DNA of 64,000 nucleotides from Bacteroidales bacterium (GTDB taxonomy: Bacteria > Bacteroidota > Bacteroidia > Bacteroidales > UBA7332): assembly GCA_028687995.1 (NCBI GenBank), contig JAQTZA010000007.1:21099-85098 (forward strand), in the 5' to 3' direction. The notes under the pieces are model-generated. The model saw only the letters and a program-made list of their open reading frames with translations, made no database searches and had not been told where the DNA came from. Positions 2,293-10,781 of the stretch are shown here, piece after piece (position 1 is the stretch's first letter; each line of letters starts with the position of its first letter). The position numbers and the translations under genes were made by a program.

Positions 2293-3795
2293 CTACACAA
2301 ACTGTTGCCAAATGCTTCCCTTTTGATAATTCTCGATGATAACAGTGCTCTGCTCGTGGTTGTAATCACATACCAAATTTGCGACTTCTTGACGAAGCAT
2401 AGAGATTGCTCCATTTATCATATCCTGACGGAATCCTTTTTCACCCAACACTATGACCATATTCATAGAGGCAATTCGGCTCATCATACGACCTAGTTCT
2501 GTTAATTTACGCTGCTGTTGTTGCAAATCAAGATCAAAACTCACCAAATCTTTGACAATATCAGCTGCACGGCTGGTTAATGAATGACCTTTCAAGAATG
2601 TGTAAAGATTCTTCTCGCCAGCAACCTTCATCAGTTTTAGAAGAGCCTCACCAATTTGAATATAAAGAATATCATTTGAACCTTCAAAAATCTGGAACGG
2701 ACGGCTATCGACAATACCACGACCTGCAACGTGGTTGAGCTTGTATGCTGCTGCACCAACCAACGTAAGAAGTGATTGAGCTGAATCTTGCATTAAATCG
2801 GTAGTCACCGTTTTGATGATATTGGCTTCTAAACCATAAGGTGTCAAATCATTTTTAATATCAGCAAGTTCCACACTTTTCAAACTAAATGCAGAACAAA
2901 TCGTGTAGTCAGCTTGCAAACGAGCCAAGCGTTGTTGCACCTGATCATAAGAATAGAGCGATTTGCCACCAACTGCACGTTGCTGTGCATGTGCAATTGC
3001 TTCATCTAGCATCCGTTGTATAAAACCAAGACCCATACCTGGAAATTGAAGACGACTGCGATGCAAAAGATCAAGCATCATCTGAACACCGGTTGTATGA
3101 GGAATCAATCGTTGTACTTTTGGGATTTTTACATCCAAAATATTTCTACCGTAAGGAATTTGATATAATCCCAAATTTTCAAAATATTCTTCTACTACTA
3201 TCTGTTGATTGTGTGCAGAATTATCACAAATAAAGAAATCGACATCACGCATCAAACCACCATGTGGTGCTTGTTTGCGTGCAGTCAATAACCAAAAATC
3301 GGCTTGTCCGGTTAATCCTGCCCAATGTTTTGTCCCTTTGAGATGAAACGAATTTTCTTCTTCTACAAAAGAAGTTTGCATATTGAGGGCGTCGCTACCA
3401 AAACCAGGTTCAGTAATCATAAGTCCGCCCATGTTTTTCATTTTCATGAAACGATCAAACACAAATGCCTTAGCTTCTGATTGACCATATTTGGCAACTG
3501 GTTGCAAAAAAAGCGCACTATTGATACCAAAAGTCAGCGAGAGAGCCAACGATTCGTACGATGCTGCTGACAACAGCGTTAAATTTTCTTGTACAATATT
3601 TCCGCGTCCACCAAATTCTGTAGGAATACTTACAGATAGAGGATTGCAGGCCATTATTTCGCTCAAAACGTTTTCCGGTAAGCCGCGATTAACACTCAGC
3701 TTATTAATGTCGTTTTCTTCGTGAAACAGCGATTTGAGAGTTGTCTTGAATTCACTGATAAATGAATCGAACGATTTTGTCTGGGGTACTTGCAT
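2293..3795 (-). CDS. Acyl-CoA dehydrogenase family protein
   Basis: MITEPGFGSDA, LKGTKHWAG, R-x-VGG and FQIFEGSNDI motifs of the ACAD fold. Confidence 0.88.
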   Translation of the reverse strand: MQVPQTKSFDSFISEFKTTLKSLFHEENDINKLSVNRGLPENVLSEIMACNPLSVSIPTEFGGRGNIVQENLTLLSAASYESLALSLTFGINSALFLQPVAKYGQSEAKAFVFDRFMKMKNMGGLMITEPGFGSDALNMQTSFVEEENSFHLKGTKHWAGLTGQADFWLLTARKQAPHGGLMRDVDFFICDNSAHNQQIVVEEYFENLGLYQIPYGRNILDVKIPKVQRLIPHTTGVQMMLDLLHRSRLQFPGMGLGFIQRMLDEAIAHAQQRAVGGKSLYSYDQVQQRLARLQADYTICSAFSLKSVELADIKNDLTPYGLEANIIKTVTTDLMQDSAQSLLTLVGAAAYKLNHVAGRGIVDSRPFQIFEGSNDILYIQIGEALLKLMKVAGEKNLYTFLKGHSLTSRAADIVKDLVSFDLDLQQQQRKLTELGRMMSRIASMNMVIVLGEKGFRQDMINGAISMLRQEVANLVCDYNHEQSTVIIENYQKGSIWQQFV

Positions 3796-4365: not shown

Positions 4366-4740
4366 TTAATGACTACAAGTATGACCATGCTCATGTGAAG
4401 AACAATTACTTCCACTATCTTTGACCTTGCCTAAGAGATATTGTAACACAAGGTCATTTACATCTCCATCACAATTTCTAATCACCGATACACCATGATC
4501 ATTGAGTTTATTAATAGCTCCATCGCCAATACCACCTGCCAACATCAGTTCAATTCCCATGGCTTGAAAAAGTTCTGAAACATTCGATTTACATCCACAC
4601 CCTTGTGGCGAGTCCATTCTTTCTTCGAAAATGATCTGATTTGTGCTCGAAATCTCGAAAATCTTATAGAAGGAGCAATGACCAAAATGAGCATCAACTT
4701 GATTATTTTCTTTTGTCGGAACTATAATCTTCATATTCAT
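4366..4740 (-). CDS. NifB/NifX (dinitrogenase FeMo-cofactor biosynthesis) family protein
   Basis: VDAHFGHCSFY, GCGCK and LAGGIGDGAINKL motifs, with a His/Cys-rich tail (CSSHEHGHTCSH). Confidence 0.85.
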   Translation of the reverse strand: MNMKIIVPTKENNQVDAHFGHCSFYKIFEISSTNQIIFEERMDSPQGCGCKSNVSELFQAMGIELMLAGGIGDGAINKLNDHGVSVIRNCDGDVNDLVLQYLLGKVKDSGSNCSSHEHGHTCSH

Positions 4741-4745
4741 ATTTT

Positions 4746-5798
4746 TTATTTACTCAGCTCAATCAATTTAGCAAAATACATAGCAAACGAACGATAGAGA
4801 AAGTGAGTCCATTTACCAAATGGAACAACGATTAACGCCCATTGTGCCAACACAATCAAATGAACGATAAAAATCCACAATTGGCTTTGGATCATATTCA
4901 TATCGATAGCTAATCTTACCAAAAAAGCAGTGAAACCCATCAATAGCAAACCAACTACAAAAAGCCAGTCAGAAGGTTGTGAGTGGGTACTAACCGCTTT
5001 CTGTTTTTTCAAGCGGCTATTCACAAAATCAGCTGTTATCACAAACACGGCGATACTCTCGATATAACCCAAAGCGATAACGAAGAGATTCTTCGAATCG
5101 AACCAATCCAGAAATACGGTGGTAAATAACAATGCCAGGTATCCGAAAACGAGGATCAAATGTTCGAACCATCGCACTTGATTATCGTCGCAGCCCAGCG
5201 AACGTTTTTGGGTAAACATGTGGACAAAGAAATCCCCCGAAGCTTTAAAGTAAGTAGCAAAAGCAACTTTTTTCTTCGGCTTGATAATTACAAAATACCA
5301 CATTCTGATGATGTTGGGCACCAACACAACGGCAAAGACCGAACCAATGGCAATCATTTCGAAATAGTGTCCATAATGCATCAGAGATTCCAATTCGAAG
5401 TTTTGCTGATATGCAAATCCAACAACGCCTAATGCCACGACTATCAATGAAATGAGGGTAACGGCAAGCGATTTATACAAAAGTCCAGAAAATCCGGTCC
5501 AATCGTATTTGGCTGTCAGCCAACGGCGAAGCGACATCATCAATTCTCCCGGATTTGCATCTTGCGGACAGTGCAACGAACATTCGCCACAATAGTAGCA
5601 AAGCCAGGGTTTGAGAGAAGCTTCAATCTCTTGATCTTGTCCCAAGGTGCTACATCTCACCATATTACGCGGGAATGAGTCTTCGGGTGTAGAGAGTGAG
5701 CAAACGGCGGTACACGTTCCGCAATTGTAACACGCATTGAAGTTTTCTGCTCCGTACTCTTTTAGTTTTTCTCCAAATTTAGGATTTATGTTTGCCAT
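4746..5798 (-). CDS. QmoC-like membrane protein: HdrC-type 2x[4Fe-4S] domain fused to an HdrE/cytochrome-b-like membrane domain
   Basis: CYNCGTCTAVC and CYYCGECSLHCP motifs plus NPGELMMSLRR, then about 6 hydrophobic helices with His residues (FEHLIL, IVHLIV, KWTHFLYR). Confidence 0.8.
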   Translation of the reverse strand: MANINPKFGEKLKEYGAENFNACYNCGTCTAVCSLSTPEDSFPRNMVRCSTLGQDQEIEASLKPWLCYYCGECSLHCPQDANPGELMMSLRRWLTAKYDWTGFSGLLYKSLAVTLISLIVVALGVVGFAYQQNFELESLMHYGHYFEMIAIGSVFAVVLVPNIIRMWYFVIIKPKKKVAFATYFKASGDFFVHMFTQKRSLGCDDNQVRWFEHLILVFGYLALLFTTVFLDWFDSKNLFVIALGYIESIAVFVITADFVNSRLKKQKAVSTHSQPSDWLFVVGLLLMGFTAFLVRLAIDMNMIQSQLWIFIVHLIVLAQWALIVVPFGKWTHFLYRSFAMYFAKLIELSK

Positions 5799-6076
5799 TA
5801 TTGTTTCAATTTATAGGTATAATACTCATCCATATCGTCGATCTCGCCGGTTTCTACCCAACCGAATTTTACCATCGACAACAGATTATACATCACTTCG
5901 TGGGTTGGCATCTCCAACTTTTGAGACAATTGAAGTATAGTCATATCACTCTCTTTCAAAGCATCAAGAATTCTTTTCTTAATTTGGGTGAACGCCTTTA
6001 AGTTCTCCTTTACTTGCTCCGATACGCCTTGTTTATCTCTAAGATATTTGGCCGTTTTTCCTTTTTCAACTTCCAT
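5798..6076 (-). CDS. Small winged-helix protein
   Basis: ILDALKESDMTILQLSQKLEMPTHEVMYNLLSMVKFGWV fits a wHTH pattern. The stop codon overlaps the ATG of the QmoC-like gene. Confidence 0.7.
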   Translation of the reverse strand: MEVEKGKTAKYLRDKQGVSEQVKENLKAFTQIKKRILDALKESDMTILQLSQKLEMPTHEVMYNLLSMVKFGWVETGEIDDMDEYYTYKLKQ

Positions 6077-6086
6077 TTTATGTCTG

Positions 6087-8027
6087 TTAAATCTGTTCTG
6101 TTAACGCATCTATCATATTCATAATCTCTTTGCTGGAGAAGGTAACCAAGTCAATCGCATCCGTTGGACAAACAGGTGTACACATGCCACAACCTTTGCA
6201 AACCGTGGTATTGACAACGGCTATTTTTCGATCACCATCGAGACCTTGTGTAATGGCATCGAACGGACAAGCTGTTGAACATTCATTACACCACGTACAT
6301 TTGACAGCGTCGATTTCTACCACAATCGGTTCGGTCTCCAATTCGCCTTTGCTGATGTATGAAAATGCTTTAGTAGCAGCGGAGAGAGAGGAGTTGACCG
6401 ATTCTGCTACGTTTTTCGGACTTTGGCAAGTACCGGCAATCGTGATACCGTCAATCGCTGTCTCTACCGGACGAAGTTTCATGTGAATCTCGTTCAGAAA
6501 ACGATCGCGACCTTTTGGCAATTTGAATAAAGTGCTTACTTTCTTATCCGATCTGGGCACCATACCGGTAACCAACACCACCAAATCAACCTCCACTTGC
6601 ATCTCTTTCGATTCTGTCAGAATATCATTCACCTTCACCCATGTTCTTCCATTTTCGGAATAAACTTCGGCGGGAGAATCGTCTGTTGCCTGAAGATAAA
6701 GATCACCTAATTTTAAGGATTCTGCATACAAAACCTCTTGTTTTCCGTACGTGCGAATGCCCCGATTGAAATGAAAATTGTGGATATTCTTGAACTTCTT
6801 TTTCGCAATAATGGCACTGTGAATGGTTGACGTGCAGCAATACCGTGAACAGTAGCTGTTGCCTTCGTCACCCTGACGACTACCTACGCAATAGATGTAG
6901 GCAATATTTTTTATCTCTTTGCCTTTGTAAATCAGTTTTGATTCACTGTTGTCTATCAGTTTTTTGAATTGTGGTAATGTAATCACACTTTCGTTTTCTG
7001 CATATCCAAACTCTCCATTTTCAGGAGTATAAGGATCGAAACCGGTTGCCATCAGCACCGAACCAACGTGCAACTCCACCATCTCTTTTTGCAAAGATAG
7101 ATCGATGTTTTTACTCACCTTCTCACAAGCACCACAGTGGGTACAAGCGGCATCATCGATGGTTGCCTGTTTGGGATATTGGCTTGCCGCAAATCCATAA
7201 ATAGCTTTGCGATTGGTAATGCCAAAGGTAAAAGGATCGGGCACAACCACCGGACAAACGTCCATCGCCTTTTGAAGCTCTTTCGCATCACAATCTTGAG
7301 AAATGTACCTCGGTGTCGTTTCAATTTTCAAACTGAAATCACCAATACTACCTGAATAAGAAACCACTTCAGAATTGGTGTAGATTTGCACGTTTTTGCG
7401 TGTTACCAACTGAGCATACAACGATGAAATCAGTTCATTTCCAGTCTGATTGGTCGTGAACATTTCGCCCCACTGACCTACTCTTCCACCAATGAATGGC
7501 TCTCTTTCAATCAACACGACCTGCGTATTTTTGTCTGACAAAGAGATAGCCGCTTTCAATCCGGCAACACCTCCACCAATAACAGCCACCGCATTGATTG
7601 CCATAATCTTATTTGGTGTGAGAGATTCTGCCAATCGCGCTTTTGCAATCGCAGCTTTCACGAGTAAAATGGTCTTCTCAGTCGCTCCTTTTTTATCATC
7701 GGAATGTGCCCACGATGCTTGCTCGCGAATGTTGGCATGAACGTAGTTATACTTATTCAAATCAGCTCTTTCGCTCACTTGGCGAAAGGTATTCAAATGC
7801 AGTTTTGGAGAACAAGACGCCACTACGATTCCAGATAAATTTTGTTCCTGAATGTCGAGTACCATCTCTTTCTGATTCGAATCGGAGCAGGCGAACTGAG
7901 TCGTTTTTGACATCAGCACACATCCATCATTTTCGATTGCTTCTCTCACTTTTTCCACGTCAACGTAGTCGGATATATTTCCACCACAATGACATATATA
8001 GACACCTAATCTTTTATCCATTTTCAA
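6087..8027 (-). CDS. hdrA: Heterodisulfide reductase subunit A-like flavoprotein (full-length)
   Basis: N-terminal YICHCG/FACS/ASCSP Cys domain, GGGVAG FAD motif, CVGSR...CSRYCC, and a C-terminal 2x[4Fe-4S] domain (CTWCNECSTACP, CKGCGMCTPVCP). Confidence 0.9.
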   Translation of the reverse strand: MKMDKRLGVYICHCGGNISDYVDVEKVREAIENDGCVLMSKTTQFACSDSNQKEMVLDIQEQNLSGIVVASCSPKLHLNTFRQVSERADLNKYNYVHANIREQASWAHSDDKKGATEKTILLVKAAIAKARLAESLTPNKIMAINAVAVIGGGVAGLKAAISLSDKNTQVVLIEREPFIGGRVGQWGEMFTTNQTGNELISSLYAQLVTRKNVQIYTNSEVVSYSGSIGDFSLKIETTPRYISQDCDAKELQKAMDVCPVVVPDPFTFGITNRKAIYGFAASQYPKQATIDDAACTHCGACEKVSKNIDLSLQKEMVELHVGSVLMATGFDPYTPENGEFGYAENESVITLPQFKKLIDNSESKLIYKGKEIKNIAYIYCVGSRQGDEGNSYCSRYCCTSTIHSAIIAKKKFKNIHNFHFNRGIRTYGKQEVLYAESLKLGDLYLQATDDSPAEVYSENGRTWVKVNDILTESKEMQVEVDLVVLVTGMVPRSDKKVSTLFKLPKGRDRFLNEIHMKLRPVETAIDGITIAGTCQSPKNVAESVNSSLSAATKAFSYISKGELETEPIVVEIDAVKCTWCNECSTACPFDAITQGLDGDRKIAVVNTTVCKGCGMCTPVCPTDAIDLVTFSSKEIMNMIDALTEQI

Positions 8028-8077: not shown

Positions 8078-9373
8078 TTACTTCAACAGATAACTAATGG
8101 CTTCTGATGAAGCAGATCCTGCCGAAAGAATAGCATCTGGAATATCCATCGGGCCTGTAGCAGTTCCTGCCACAAAAACGCCGTCAATACTGGTATGCGA
8201 AGGGTTTGCCAATCCATCGGTTTGATGAACAAAACGATACGGATCGAGCATCAATTGCTCCTCTGAGAAAAGTGAAGTGGTTCCTTCATTGGGTAAAACA
8301 CCCACCGAAAGAATCACCATATCGTGCTCCTCTTCTTTCACTATGCCTTCGTTGATATCCTCGTAGCGCAACATCAGATTCCCATTTTCGGTTTCTGAGA
8401 TTGAGCCAACTTTACCTTTCACAAAATTGACACCCATTCCCTTTGCCTGTTGGTAAAAATCTTCGAATCCTTTACCAAAAGCTCTGATATTGATGTAGTA
8501 GATAGTCACATCCGCCATGGGCAAAGCACCCATCAACAGTTGCGATTGCTTGATAGAATACATACAGCAAATCTGTGAACAGATCGGATTTCCGACCGAA
8601 GCATCACGCGATCCCACGCAAAGTACATACGCAATTTTATCAGGCACTTTTCCATCGCTGGGTCTCAAAATGGTATTGAATGGACGGGTCGGTGCAATTT
8701 CACGCTCCATTTGCAGAGAGGTGAGCACATTTTTATATTTTCCAAAACCATATCGGGGAATACGGTTGGCGTCGAACATCTCAAATCCGGTAGCCAAAAT
8801 CACCGTTTTGAATTGCATCTCTAAATGTTCTACCTCCTGAGTAAAATCGATACAATTTGTCGGACAAGCTCGTTCGCAGGCACCACACAACGTACAATTT
8901 TCAATATCGATGGCTGCTGCTTTCGGGCTGGCAATGCTAAAAGGAATATATGCGGCTTTACGGCCAATCAACCCAAACTGGTATTGGTCGCGCACACTTA
9001 CCGGACATGCTTTTTCGCACAATTGGCAAGCGGTACAATCTTCTACTCTCACGTATCGTGGTTGACGGGTGATATTCGCCACAAAATGATTATCGGCAAC
9101 CCGTCTGATATTGGAAGCCTCTGAACCGGTAAAGATGGTGATATTGGGATGACGCGAAATTTCAGATACTTTGGGCGTAGTGATACAGGCTGAGCAATCT
9201 AAAGTCGGGAAAACTTTACTCAACTTGATCATATTGCCGCCCACCGACAAATCTTTTTCTACCAACAATACCTTAAATCCGTTTACGGCTAAGTTTAGTG
9301 CGGCTTCGCCGCCTGCTATGCCTGCTCCGACGACTAATGCATCGTAAGAAACACTATTTTTCGTTGAACTCAT
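8078..9373 (-). CDS. hdrA: Heterodisulfide reductase subunit A-like flavoprotein (short, QmoA-sized)
   Basis: GAGIAG FAD motif, FPTLDCSAC, an inserted 2x[4Fe-4S] domain (CTACQLCEKACP, CTLCGACERACP) and CVGSR...CSQICCMYSIK. It lacks the N-terminal and C-terminal Fe-S domains. Confidence 0.9.
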   Translation of the reverse strand: MSSTKNSVSYDALVVGAGIAGGEAALNLAVNGFKVLLVEKDLSVGGNMIKLSKVFPTLDCSACITTPKVSEISRHPNITIFTGSEASNIRRVADNHFVANITRQPRYVRVEDCTACQLCEKACPVSVRDQYQFGLIGRKAAYIPFSIASPKAAAIDIENCTLCGACERACPTNCIDFTQEVEHLEMQFKTVILATGFEMFDANRIPRYGFGKYKNVLTSLQMEREIAPTRPFNTILRPSDGKVPDKIAYVLCVGSRDASVGNPICSQICCMYSIKQSQLLMGALPMADVTIYYINIRAFGKGFEDFYQQAKGMGVNFVKGKVGSISETENGNLMLRYEDINEGIVKEEEHDMVILSVGVLPNEGTTSLFSEEQLMLDPYRFVHQTDGLANPSHTSIDGVFVAGTATGPMDIPDAILSAGSASSEAISYLLK

Positions 9374-9783
9374 TTCTCTGTATTTGAACTCTTTAATAAG
9401 TATTCGTTGAAACTTTTGATCTGTTTCACAAACGATTCGCTACACACTGAACACATCGCTGCCATTCTCAATCTTGCGGGCTCGATCTGTTTTTCCTGCA
9501 TCAGAATATGAGTTTTGCCAACCAATGCACCTGTTTTCTCGGTACACGATTCACCAAACACACAATCGCTTCCATCCGCAGCAATAAATACACCATCAAA
9601 TCCTTTTTCGTAGGCATACATGATCCAACTGGGTTTAATTCCACTAGAGCAAGGAATTGTGATTGTATAAACGGTGGGTGGGTAATGCAACTTTAACAAA
9701 CCGGCCATATCGATTGCCGGATCTGAAATTTTCTCGGTCGAAAACACCAATATTTTCGCACTTTTTTTCGAAATATCTGCCAT
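9370..9783 (-). CDS. MvhD/FlpD-like iron-sulfur subunit (divergent)
   Basis: IDMAGLLKLHYPP...IPCSSGIKPSWIMYAYEKGFDGVFI...DC...IEPARLR follows the MvhD pattern. The stop overlaps the hdrA start by 4 bp. Confidence 0.8.
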   Translation of the reverse strand: MADISKKSAKILVFSTEKISDPAIDMAGLLKLHYPPTVYTITIPCSSGIKPSWIMYAYEKGFDGVFIAADGSDCVFGESCTEKTGALVGKTHILMQEKQIEPARLRMAAMCSVCSESFVKQIKSFNEYLLKSSNTEK

Positions 9784-9819
9784 GTCTTATGGGTTATGAG
9801 AGGCTTTTTATAAAAAAGA

Positions 9820-9898
9820 GTAAAGGGCAGCAAAGGAGTATTTTGTAAAACATCTAACCTTAATACAATAGACACAACCGATGAAATCTGCCCTTTAC
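9820..9898. repeat. Intra-operon inverted repeat between tusA and mvhD
   Basis: GTAAAGGGCAG (9820-9830) and CTGCCCTTTAC (9888-9898) form a perfect 11-bp inverted repeat. Confidence 0.75.
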
Positions 9899-9916
9899 AA
9901 TACTGTTTGACAGGAA

Positions 9917-10168
9917 TTATTTTTTCTTGAGATAAACTTTGAAATATCCGTTTACATCCACAAAACCCAAGTATTCGTGACCTTGTTTTCCGCACCATTT
10001 GGGGATATCCGATTTCGTTCCTTCGTCTGCTGATAATACTTCCATCACATCACCTGATTTGATGCTACCAATTGTTTTTTTTGCTTCCAAAAGCGGTCCG
10101 GGACAAGCTGTTCCTCTTGCATCTACTGATTTTGCTACCGCTACGGTCATTAATTCTTCTGTTGTCAT
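9917..10168 (-). CDS. tusA: TusA/SirA family sulfur-carrier protein
   Basis: VDARGTACPGPLLEAKK...EVLSADEGTKSDIPKWC. The start was moved to the ATG at 10168 because the longer ORF overlaps dsrE. Confidence 0.9.
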   Translation of the reverse strand: MTTEELMTVAVAKSVDARGTACPGPLLEAKKTIGSIKSGDVMEVLSADEGTKSDIPKWCGKQGHEYLGFVDVNGYFKVYLKKK

Positions 10169-10214: not shown

Positions 10215-10781
10215 TCAAATAAATAGTTGAATGCTGCTTTCGCCAGCATCTGCCACAAAAGTGCCCGCTCCTGCGTAGCGTAGGTTTGGATAATCAATGA
10301 TCTCCTCTTTCTTGAAGCCCATCAAATTCATCGACATCTCACACACGGTAATTTCGATGCCCAATTCGCCGGCCTCTTTAAACATCTGATCCAACGACAT
10401 GACACCTTGTTTTTTCATCAAGTGATTAATCATTTTAGGGCCAATACCGCACATATTCATATTGGATAACGCCAATTTCTCTTTACCTTTTGGCAGCATC
10501 ATACCAAACATTTTTGAAATGATGTCTTTACCGGGTGCTTTTTTCTTGCGATCCCGCAAAGCCGAAACCGACCAGAACGAGAAAAACAGTTTCACCTCTG
10601 TATCCATCGCAGCAGCAGCAATGGAGATAACCATGGCCGCCAGAATCTTATCCATATCACCCGAAACAATAGCCATTGATAATTGATCTTTGCGCGAATT
10701 TTCCAGTGTGCTTATCTTGCTTTTCAGCTCATCTATCTGAGCTTGAAGGTCTGCGATTTCGATATTTTTATTCGTTTCCAT
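10215..10781 (-). CDS. DsrE/DsrF/DrsH-like (DsrE2-type) sulfurtransferase
   Basis: SGDMDKILAAMVISIAAAAMDTEVKLFFSFWS and ITVCEMSMNLMG (conserved Cys), with an N-terminal coiled coil. Confidence 0.88.
   Translation of the reverse strand: METNKNIEIADLQAQIDELKSKISTLENSRKDQLSMAIVSGDMDKILAAMVISIAAAAMDTEVKLFFSFWSVSALRDRKKKAPGKDIISKMFGMMLPKGKEKLALSNMNMCGIGPKMINHLMKKQGVMSLDQMFKEAGELGIEITVCEMSMNLMGFKKEEIIDYPNLRYAGAGTFVADAGESSIQLFI

Follow-up and report, generated by a model that had tools for sequence, protein, structure and literature searches.

The stretch of DNA analysed here, referred to as the window, covers 64,000 nucleotides of a Bacteroidales genome (GCA_028687995.1, contig JAQTZA010000007.1, positions 21,099 to 85,098 of the forward strand), and all positions are given relative to its first letter. 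On the minus strand of the window, at 9370..9783, a gene with an ATG start encodes a 137-residue subunit with the MvhD/FlpD fold, which carries a CxxC motif that is absent from canonical MvhD. Canonical MvhD connects a hydrogenase to a flavoprotein by way of an iron-sulfur cluster. We termed the CxxC-bearing subfamily, including the 9370..9783 protein, MvhD*. The protein in the window belongs to type A of the subfamily, defined by five cysteines. MvhD* is an uncharacterised MvhD subfamily that is nearly always encoded beside tusA.

Membership of MvhD* in the MvhD/FlpD family and fold is not in doubt. The protein matches PF02662 (FlpD/MvhD) with an E-value of 1.1e-25 and 90.5 bits, against a cut-off of 22.3, over positions 1–119 of the 123-position profile. 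Its best NCBIfam match is to positions 644–773 of the HdrA2 model, the C-terminal MvhD-like part. The AlphaFold2 model, built from a 40-sequence alignment, has a predicted local distance difference test (pLDDT) score of 89.5 and consists of four strands (residues 11–16, 38–43, 64–69 and 105–109) and four helices (20–29, 51–59, 80–97 and 115–136); within the core, pLDDT is lowest in the loop 71–80. In a Foldseek search the closest structure is 5odc_D, with a template modelling (TM) score of 0.85 and a root-mean-square deviation of 1.6 Å, followed by 8rvu_F and 7bkb_F (TM scores of 0.83–0.85). The Foldseek matches comprise MvhD and flavodoxin-like folds only, with no thioredoxin fold among them, and a search of the ESM Atlas returned FlpD clusters only. 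Thus alignment to PF02662 and structure prediction, both proposed as checks in an initial annotation of this DNA, agree on an MvhD fold, a parallel alpha/beta arrangement with four strands.

The gene is part of an operon that reads, on the minus strand, DsrE2, TusA, MvhD*, short HdrA, long HdrA, a 92-residue protein, a QmoC-like subunit and a NifX-like protein. A Crp/Fnr-type gene lies upstream and is divergent. The first gene (10215..10781) encodes a DsrE2-type sulfur carrier, with 148.8 bits to PF13686 and 60.9 bits, below the cut-off of 210, to NF047629. Directly upstream of MvhD* is tusA (9917..10168; 83 residues from the ATG at 10168), which matches PF01206 with 79 bits; its active-site C22, in the motif ACPGP, is present in 84 of 84 orthologues. 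The TGA stop codon of the MvhD* gene overlaps the ATG of the short HdrA gene (ATGA). Short HdrA (8078..9373) is a QmoA-like flavoprotein of 431 residues that contains the motif FPTLDC60SAC63 and matches NF040770 with 473 bits, below the cut-off. Long HdrA (6087..8027) is a QmoB-like flavoprotein of 646 residues with N- and C-terminal iron-sulfur (Fe-S) domains, and it aligns to positions 1–643 of the HdrA2 model. It has no fused MvhD domain; the MvhD-like part is the separate upstream gene. The remaining genes encode a cysteine-free, winged-helix-like protein of 92 residues (5798..6076), which has weak Pfam matches and is present in 71 of 88 loci; a QmoC-like membrane Fe-S/cytochrome b subunit (4746..5798), which matches the full-length qmoC model NF038018 with 146 bits against a cut-off of 300; and, last in the operon, a NifX/NifB-like protein (4366..4740). 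All of these genes are on the minus strand.

No CCG/HdrB domain (PF02754) is encoded in the operon, and the only CCG proteins of the genome are on other contigs. No gene for an MvhAG/VhuAG hydrogenase, Fdh or Elp was found in the operon; formate dehydrogenase was not searched for genome-wide. The genome is 99.99% complete and contains one FlpD and one TusA. It has no match to the [NiFe] hydrogenase large subunit (PF00374) and none to AprA (TIGR02061), DsrA, DsrC or YeeE, and no aprBA is present in the operon. In databases MvhD* proteins bear the name ‘hydrogenase iron-sulfur subunit’ in genomes without such a hydrogenase.

Several features of the locus stand apart from the conserved operon. 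The NifX/NifB-like gene is not conserved with the operon: only about 9 of 88 loci have a clear homologue of it nearby, mostly in non-adjacent positions. The gap between tusA and MvhD* (9784-9916, 133 nucleotides) contains an inverted repeat with a long loop, AAAGGGCAG ... CTGCCCTTT, and after it a T-run. The length of this gap varies among relatives from about 10 to 190 nucleotides, indicating that the element does not belong to what is conserved in the operon. Downstream, at 2293-3795 on the minus strand, is a gene for a 500-residue protein of the acyl-CoA dehydrogenase family. Its best NCBIfam match is 3-sulfinopropanoyl-CoA desulfinase, at 89.8 bits against a cut-off of 600, and it is probably unrelated to the operon.

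Cysteine pattern and distribution of the CxxC subfamily

To number the canonical cysteines, MvhD* was aligned pairwise, using HMMER, to MvhD of M. thermolithotrophicus (5odc_D). The initial annotation had listed cysteines at positions 45, 74, 80, 111 and 114 of the protein, and had proposed that the canonical CxWC is replaced by STEKIS, GCH by ADG and the ISASE region by MCSVC. The translation and the alignment bear this out. FCCNWCTY of 5odc_D corresponds to FSTEKISD in MvhD*, eliminating C12, C13 and C16; the loop that takes the place of C-C-x-W-C, F14-S-T-E-K-I19, is encoded at 9727..9744 (minus strand), and T16 occupies the position of ligand C13. MCSGR becomes PCSSG, in which C42 is kept as C45 (codon 9649..9651, minus strand), after strand 2. 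GGCHLGDCHY becomes AA-DGSDCVF: C67 has been lost by deletion and C72 persists as C74, which forms a C-x5-C motif with the new C80 at the N-terminus of helix 3 (C74-C80, 9544..9564, minus strand). In the same region D70 and D73 align with His68 and Asp71, so that Asp71 is also retained. Finally, WISASEGE becomes AMCSVCSE, which creates C111 and C114. This CxxC (C111-S-V-C114, 9442..9453, minus strand) is located between strand 4 (105–109) and helix 4 (115–136). Three cysteines, C80, C111 and C114, are thus new relative to canonical MvhD.

The pattern S-T-x-x-I is found in 39 representatives, and we considered whether S-T-x-x-I-S-D is a flavodoxin-like phosphate loop. This was rejected, as a Gly-rich motif is missing from the loop and type B, the second clade described below, does not conserve the loop.

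In a sample of canonical MvhD sequences, C13, C42, C67 and C72 are conserved almost universally and C12 is variable. Based on this conservation and on PMC13580544, the first four are presumably the ligands of the [2Fe-2S] cluster and C16 an extra, non-ligand cysteine. Because C13 and C67 are gone, two of these four ligands are missing in MvhD*, leaving only the equivalents of C42 and C72. The suggestion in the initial annotation, that cluster ligation is altered or a redox-active CxxC has been gained, is supported without a choice between the two: with C13 and C67 absent, a standard cluster through the canonical positions would not be possible. The absence of C13 holds throughout the CxxC clade, and the C67 equivalent is kept in the basal Thermoanaerobacterales lineage (P0165/P0302). 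As a separate observation on these positions, residue 16 is selenocysteine (Sec) in VhuD, in a CxxU motif (PMC13188914). The alignment to the selenoprotein VhuD 9sfi_K has two X residues, at canonical positions 16 and 67, and one Sec falls on the presumed ligand position 67.

We asked how widely the new pattern is conserved. All five cysteines are invariant in 121 of 121 homologues with 74–91% identity, and also in seven representatives from other phyla with 43–50% identity. In the alignment of these seven, the five cysteines fall among only 31 invariant columns out of 137, with a probability of about 5e-4 by a simple hypergeometric estimate. Invariance in both sets indicates that the conservation is not due to chance. 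At 88 syntenic loci, C111 and C114 are present in all 88, C45 and C74 in 87 and C80 in 85; conservation in syntenic orthologues was the check on C111 and C114 named in the initial annotation, and neither this check nor the one for a canonical cluster refuted its reading. A search among representative proteins gave only 381 relatives at E ≤ 1e-3, and 39 of those that cover the motif bear the CxxC. The motif is present in 15 of 15 CxxC-clade representatives, which extend down to 29% identity and come from Bacteroidota, Bacillota, Chloroflexota, Acidobacteriota and the archaeon Vulcanisaeta; in their alignment C111 and C114 are two of only nine invariant columns. We also looked for Sec in place of cysteine at 111 or 114. 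No homologue ending shortly before or starting shortly after these codons was found, nor any in-frame stop at the 88 loci, a weak test for such variants.

These data bear on the explanation that MvhD* is an ordinary MvhD with a normal [2Fe-2S] cluster whose cysteines are mis-aligned, or else a decaying gene. The Pfam and NCBIfam matches to MvhD/VhuD and to the C-terminal domain of HdrA2, and the database name, are what one would expect for an ordinary MvhD. However, C13 and C67 are absent by sequence and structure alignments alike, which refutes this explanation at the sequence level. Decay is contradicted by the identity of 74–91% across about 80 species and by the translational coupling to the next gene, both of which indicate strong purifying selection. 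We consider either version extremely improbable.

In a maximum-likelihood tree of 54 representatives, all 15 CxxC bearers lie on one side of a branch with support 99/92. By this tree the CxxC subfamily has a single origin. The first lineage to branch within it (P0165/P0302, Thermoanaerobacterales) keeps equivalents of C16, C42, C67 and C72. The other members form two clades. Type A (support 98/90) has the five-cysteine pattern and includes Bacteroidota, Bacillota, Limnocylindrales and the crenarchaeon Vulcanisaeta. Type B (support 99/98) includes Acidobacteriaceae and Anaerolineales and has lost C45, C74 and C80 in varying combinations; two of its members, P0166 and P0184, have no cysteine besides the CxxC. 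The CxxC is universal and conservation of C45, C74 and C80 is confined to type A, so that the hallmark of the subfamily is the CxxC and not the five-cysteine set. Of the representatives covering both regions, C13 alone is present in 36 and the CxxC alone in 14, none has both and one has neither; this mutual exclusion reflects a single evolutionary event and is a pattern, not a statistic.

The genomic context is conserved as well. Scanning genome contigs with the 7-sequence alignment, we found that the best 80 loci are all from Bacteroidales, and the same gene order recurs in 80 species-level Bacteroidales genomes. tusA is directly upstream of MvhD* in 79 of the 80 Bacteroidales loci, the exception being cut off by a contig end, and at all 88 loci two HdrA-like genes come after MvhD*. 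Within the order the module is patchy, occurring in 67 of 301 sampled genomes and 55 of 208 genera. Its distribution outside the order was read from cluster names and nine contig contexts. In seven of these nine distant contexts tusA is in the MvhD* operon: it shares the operon in Vulcanisaeta, in an Acidobacteriota contig with a reduced gene set, in Anaerolineales together with DsrE2, a second TusA and YeeE, in two further contigs, and in the Bacillota and GCA_054003055.1 loci described below. The TusA/DsrE2-linked Qmo-like operon is widespread: besides the order Bacteroidales, related forms occur in Vulcanisaeta and in at least four further phyla of bacteria. The near-universal adjacency of tusA, the lack of a match to the [NiFe] large subunit and the presence of a sole FlpD and a sole TusA in the genome fit the earlier proposal that the partner is TusA/DsrE instead of a hydrogenase.

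Some loci deviate from this arrangement. In a metagenome-assembled genome (MAG) of Bacillota (L085:10001-15178), tusA occurs with MvhD* and a GltD-like NAD(P)H module replaces the QmoC-like anchor. In this locus and in P0326-P0330, which have no QmoC-like anchor, a GltD-like module is joined to the first HdrA, in some cases with MvhD* in the same polypeptide (649–1057 residues). These forms would represent a soluble variant of the system that is linked to pyridine nucleotides. The natural fusions of MvhD* to the GltD/HdrA-like flavoprotein retain all five cysteines and support a physical association of MvhD* with the flavoprotein. In GCA_054003055.1 (L088:5672-15333), a TusA-MvhD*-HdrA-HdrA-QmoC-like operon adjoins DsrN-like, DsrC and DsrO/DsrP-like genes, placing the module within Dsr-type sulfur metabolism in some organisms. 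A Thermoanaerobacterales MAG of the P0302/P0165 lineage (L086:9001-14139) contains a five-gene core with neither tusA nor dsrE; upstream are a gene resembling the small subunit of Fe-hydrogenase and a gene for a 4-cluster ferredoxin. This lineage may be a transitional form. On one metagenome contig (P0323-P0325), type A MvhD* has an N-terminal receiver (REC) domain and the core of HdrA, HdrA, winged helix-turn-helix and QmoC-like proteins is kept. In the place of tusA is a gene for a 537-residue protein with REC and GcvH/lipoyl-type domains, and a sigma-54 two-component system adjoins. This arrangement suggests that TusA can be substituted by a dithiol carrier of the lipoyl type.

Possible roles of the cysteine site

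The operon contains neither an HdrB-type nor an AprAB-type catalytic partner, which makes the site of the sulfur chemistry the central question. The CxxC is the sole feature common to all operons of the MvhD* kind. As the sole clade-specific invariant of the subunit encoded right after TusA, it is the most concrete candidate for a catalytic or hand-off site. P0166 and P0184 keep no other cysteine in an operon of the same composition, and a function shared by the clade would therefore need only the two cysteines of the CxxC.

A second pair of cysteines is found in the HdrA partner. In methanogens, the Cys202/Cys205 pair of HdrA lies between the MvhD cluster and the bifurcating flavin adenine dinucleotide (FAD), adjacent to MvhD Cys16 (PMC13580544). 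In cryo-electron microscopy (cryo-EM), the pair and MvhD Asp71 hold an unidentified ligand, near His68 (PMC13580544), and the pair (Cys/Sec197) has been proposed to act as a redox-active relay formed by a disulfide or selenylsulfide (PMC13518236). C60 and C63 of short HdrA correspond to residues 202 and 205 of M. marburgensis HdrA (8rvu_a) in an ungapped alignment, and are invariant in 82 of 82 orthologues, distant ones included. In a pairwise comparison, long HdrA has FTTNQT at this position. The two paralogues are complementary: the short one keeps the cysteine pair and the long one carries the N- and C-terminal Fe-S domains. This complementarity fits an obligate asymmetric heterodimer.

The explanation we favour, to which we give slightly less than an even chance, is that the CxxC is a redox-active or sulfur-accepting cysteine pair linking a TusA persulfide to the HdrA cysteine pair and flavin. 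In a Qmo-like complex that is linked to TusA/DsrE2 and contains short HdrA, long HdrA and the QmoC-like anchor, MvhD* would be the small subunit for docking, seated on long HdrA as MvhD is on HdrA. The face that in MvhD bears the cluster (His68/Asp71, Cys16) and swings to Cys202/Cys205 and FAD would in MvhD* present C111 and C114, to which type A would add C74 and C80. In this scheme DsrE2 would load a persulfide onto Cys22 of TusA, and the cysteine site of MvhD* would exchange a disulfide or persulfide with it. C60/C63 of short HdrA, together with FAD, would recycle the site in a manner similar to thioredoxin reductase. For electron exchange the flavin could then use menaquinone, reached through the QmoC-like subunit, or ferredoxin, reached through the long HdrA and its Fe-S domains. 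Sulfur may flow in either direction, with sulfane sulfur being reduced to sulfide or oxidised. The CxxC is predicted to lie on the sheet edge that in MvhD faces HdrA, and the sequence of strand, CxxC and helix N-terminus resembles the layout of redox-active CxxC motifs. Family, fold, the loss of canonical cysteines, the conservation and single origin of the CxxC, the synteny and the fusions are observed; docking geometry, thiol chemistry and electron path are inferred from them.

A bolder version casts MvhD* as the catalytic thiol module in an Hdr-family enzyme of a new, HdrB-free type, with a putative path from the TusA Cys22 persulfide through C111/C114 and HdrA C60/C63 to FAD. We regard this as rather unlikely on the present sequences. 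If true, a protein-based dithiol/disulfide or persulfide relay would join menaquinone, ferredoxin or both to the sulfane sulfur bound to its carrier. With the fold kept, the replacement of an Fe-S wire by a cysteine relay would in addition amount to a natural experiment on the electron step from the MvhD site to the bifurcating flavin of the methanogen Hdr.

Four observations weigh against a thiol role for the CxxC. Five invariant cysteines in type A, arranged as C-x5-C and C-x2-C in adjacent loops, are also expected of a metal or cluster site. The basal lineage P0165/P0302 keeps the equivalents of C16, C42, C67 and C72 with no tusA nearby, and the CxxC may therefore be a replacement cluster ligand and may predate the link to TusA. 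The REC-fused form of MvhD* likewise occurs without tusA. Lastly, no Sec-for-Cys variant at position 111 or 114 was detected, either from the ends of homologues or from in-frame stops at the 88 loci, which is a weak test.

In the main rival explanation MvhD* is still an electron wire, with a [2Fe-2S], [4Fe-4S] or other metal centre on shifted cysteines, and the TusA chemistry takes place elsewhere. The ligands could be C74, C80, C111 and C114, or C45/C74 and the CxxC. Such a rewired site would account for the invariance of the five cysteines across phyla in type A and for their location, as all of them lie on the C-terminal edge of the parallel sheet, the region of MvhD that binds the cluster. 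If the strands have the order usual for this fold, 2-1-3-4, then strand 4, which C111 follows, is the neighbour of strand 3, which carried the deleted C67 at its end. The mutual exclusion of C13 and the CxxC is what a ligand swap predicts, and the basal P0165 lineage lacks only C13, having three canonical ligands plus the CxxC. Two further observations are consistent with a bound centre: the loop 71–80 has the lowest pLDDT of the core, and the cryo-EM ligand on the HdrA cysteine pair and MvhD Asp71 is unidentified (PMC13580544). However, type B, with the same operon, keeps the CxxC alone or three cysteines in varying positions. With only two or three cysteines left, no four-cysteine site within the subunit can be common to the clade, and a site in type B would need to be inter-subunit, completed by C60/C63 of short HdrA. 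Furthermore, judging from the fold topology, the distance from C45, which follows strand 2, to C111, which follows strand 4, is probably too large for a shared [2Fe-2S] cluster. We consider a rewired metal site doubtful on balance, yet a real possibility.

MvhD* could also be a structural adaptor, a cluster-less subunit that only holds the HdrA pair or TusA, in which the CxxC serves folding or stability through a disulfide or Zn. The fold and the docking helix are retained. In VhuD the helix N76-L93 helps dock the electron-input module and is a known binding element for such modules (PMC13518236); the matching helix of MvhD* begins at C80. The natural fusions show that MvhD* is physically part of the flavoprotein. 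Against a purely structural role, the CxxC is the sole clade-specific invariant over about 70% sequence divergence and two domains of life. Structural disulfides in the cytoplasm are unlikely in strict anaerobes, as is textbook knowledge, and in type B two cysteines alone are insufficient for a Zn site. We find this explanation improbable.

Relation to known systems

We found no description of the MvhD* subunit or its CxxC in the literature. The nearest report is of a Cloacimonadota MAG in which Hdr genes cluster with those for TusA, a sulfurtransferase and a transporter of sulfur; the cluster was interpreted as a system for sulfur oxidation (PMC8542988).

The closest characterised relatives are MvhD and VhuD, the [2Fe-2S] delta subunit of F420-non-reducing [NiFe] hydrogenase (PF02662; 5ODC chain D, 8RVU chain F and 9SFI chain K), which belong to the same family, have the same fold and also partner an HdrA-type flavoprotein. 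The equivalents of C42, C72 and Asp71 are common to both. In contrast, MvhD* lacks C12, C13, C16 and C67, has the CxxC in place of the conserved S-A-S-E and gains C80. Its neighbour is TusA, and the operon provides neither a hydrogenase nor a formate dehydrogenase as partner; in the tree it falls into a clade of its own (support 99/92). The comparison is relevant to current work on the methanogen Hdr complexes and on their route from the MvhD cluster through the conserved Cys/Sec pair and the unidentified ligand to the bifurcating FAD.

Long HdrA (1–643) and MvhD* (644–773) together span the HdrA2 model from end to end. In QmoB and HdrA2 the MvhD-like domain is fused at the C-terminus, whereas MvhD* is a separate gene upstream of both HdrA genes. 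Like the QmoABC complex of sulfate reducers, the MvhD* operon encodes a QmoA-like short HdrA and a QmoC-like membrane subunit, and the role of the MvhD domain of QmoB is likewise unexplained (PMC3333476). The association of QmoABC with AprBA has no counterpart here, as there is no aprBA in the genome, and the QmoC-like protein scores below the qmoC cut-off. The HdrA-MvhD fusions that we sampled for comparison keep C13, C42, C67 and C72 and have no CxxC. These fusions are not established as genuine QmoB: no NCBIfam qmoB model was matched in the comparator search, and one of them is encoded in a glutamate-synthase-like cluster, not beside aprBA.

The proposed principle is similar to that of low-Mr thioredoxin reductase and thioredoxin and of the HdrA Cys202/Cys205 relay (PMC13518236), in which electrons would pass from FAD to a CxxC, to the CxxC of a small partner protein and to the substrate, which for MvhD* would be the TusA persulfide. 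Thioredoxin also has its CxxC at a strand-to-helix junction. MvhD* does not have the thioredoxin fold, and the likeness, which is predicted, is mechanistic only.

Finally, the sulfur-oxidising sHdr-LbpA system fed by TusA/DsrE3 (PMC11094781, PMC6067878) is likewise an Hdr-type flavoprotein complex genetically coupled to TusA/DsrE carriers. One variant of MvhD*, with a GcvH/lipoyl-type protein in the place of TusA, extends this parallel. The two systems differ in their remaining subunits: sHdr has HdrB1/B2, which are CCG proteins with non-cubane clusters, and HdrC1/C2, with no MvhD, whereas the MvhD* operon encodes no CCG protein and has a QmoC-like anchor.

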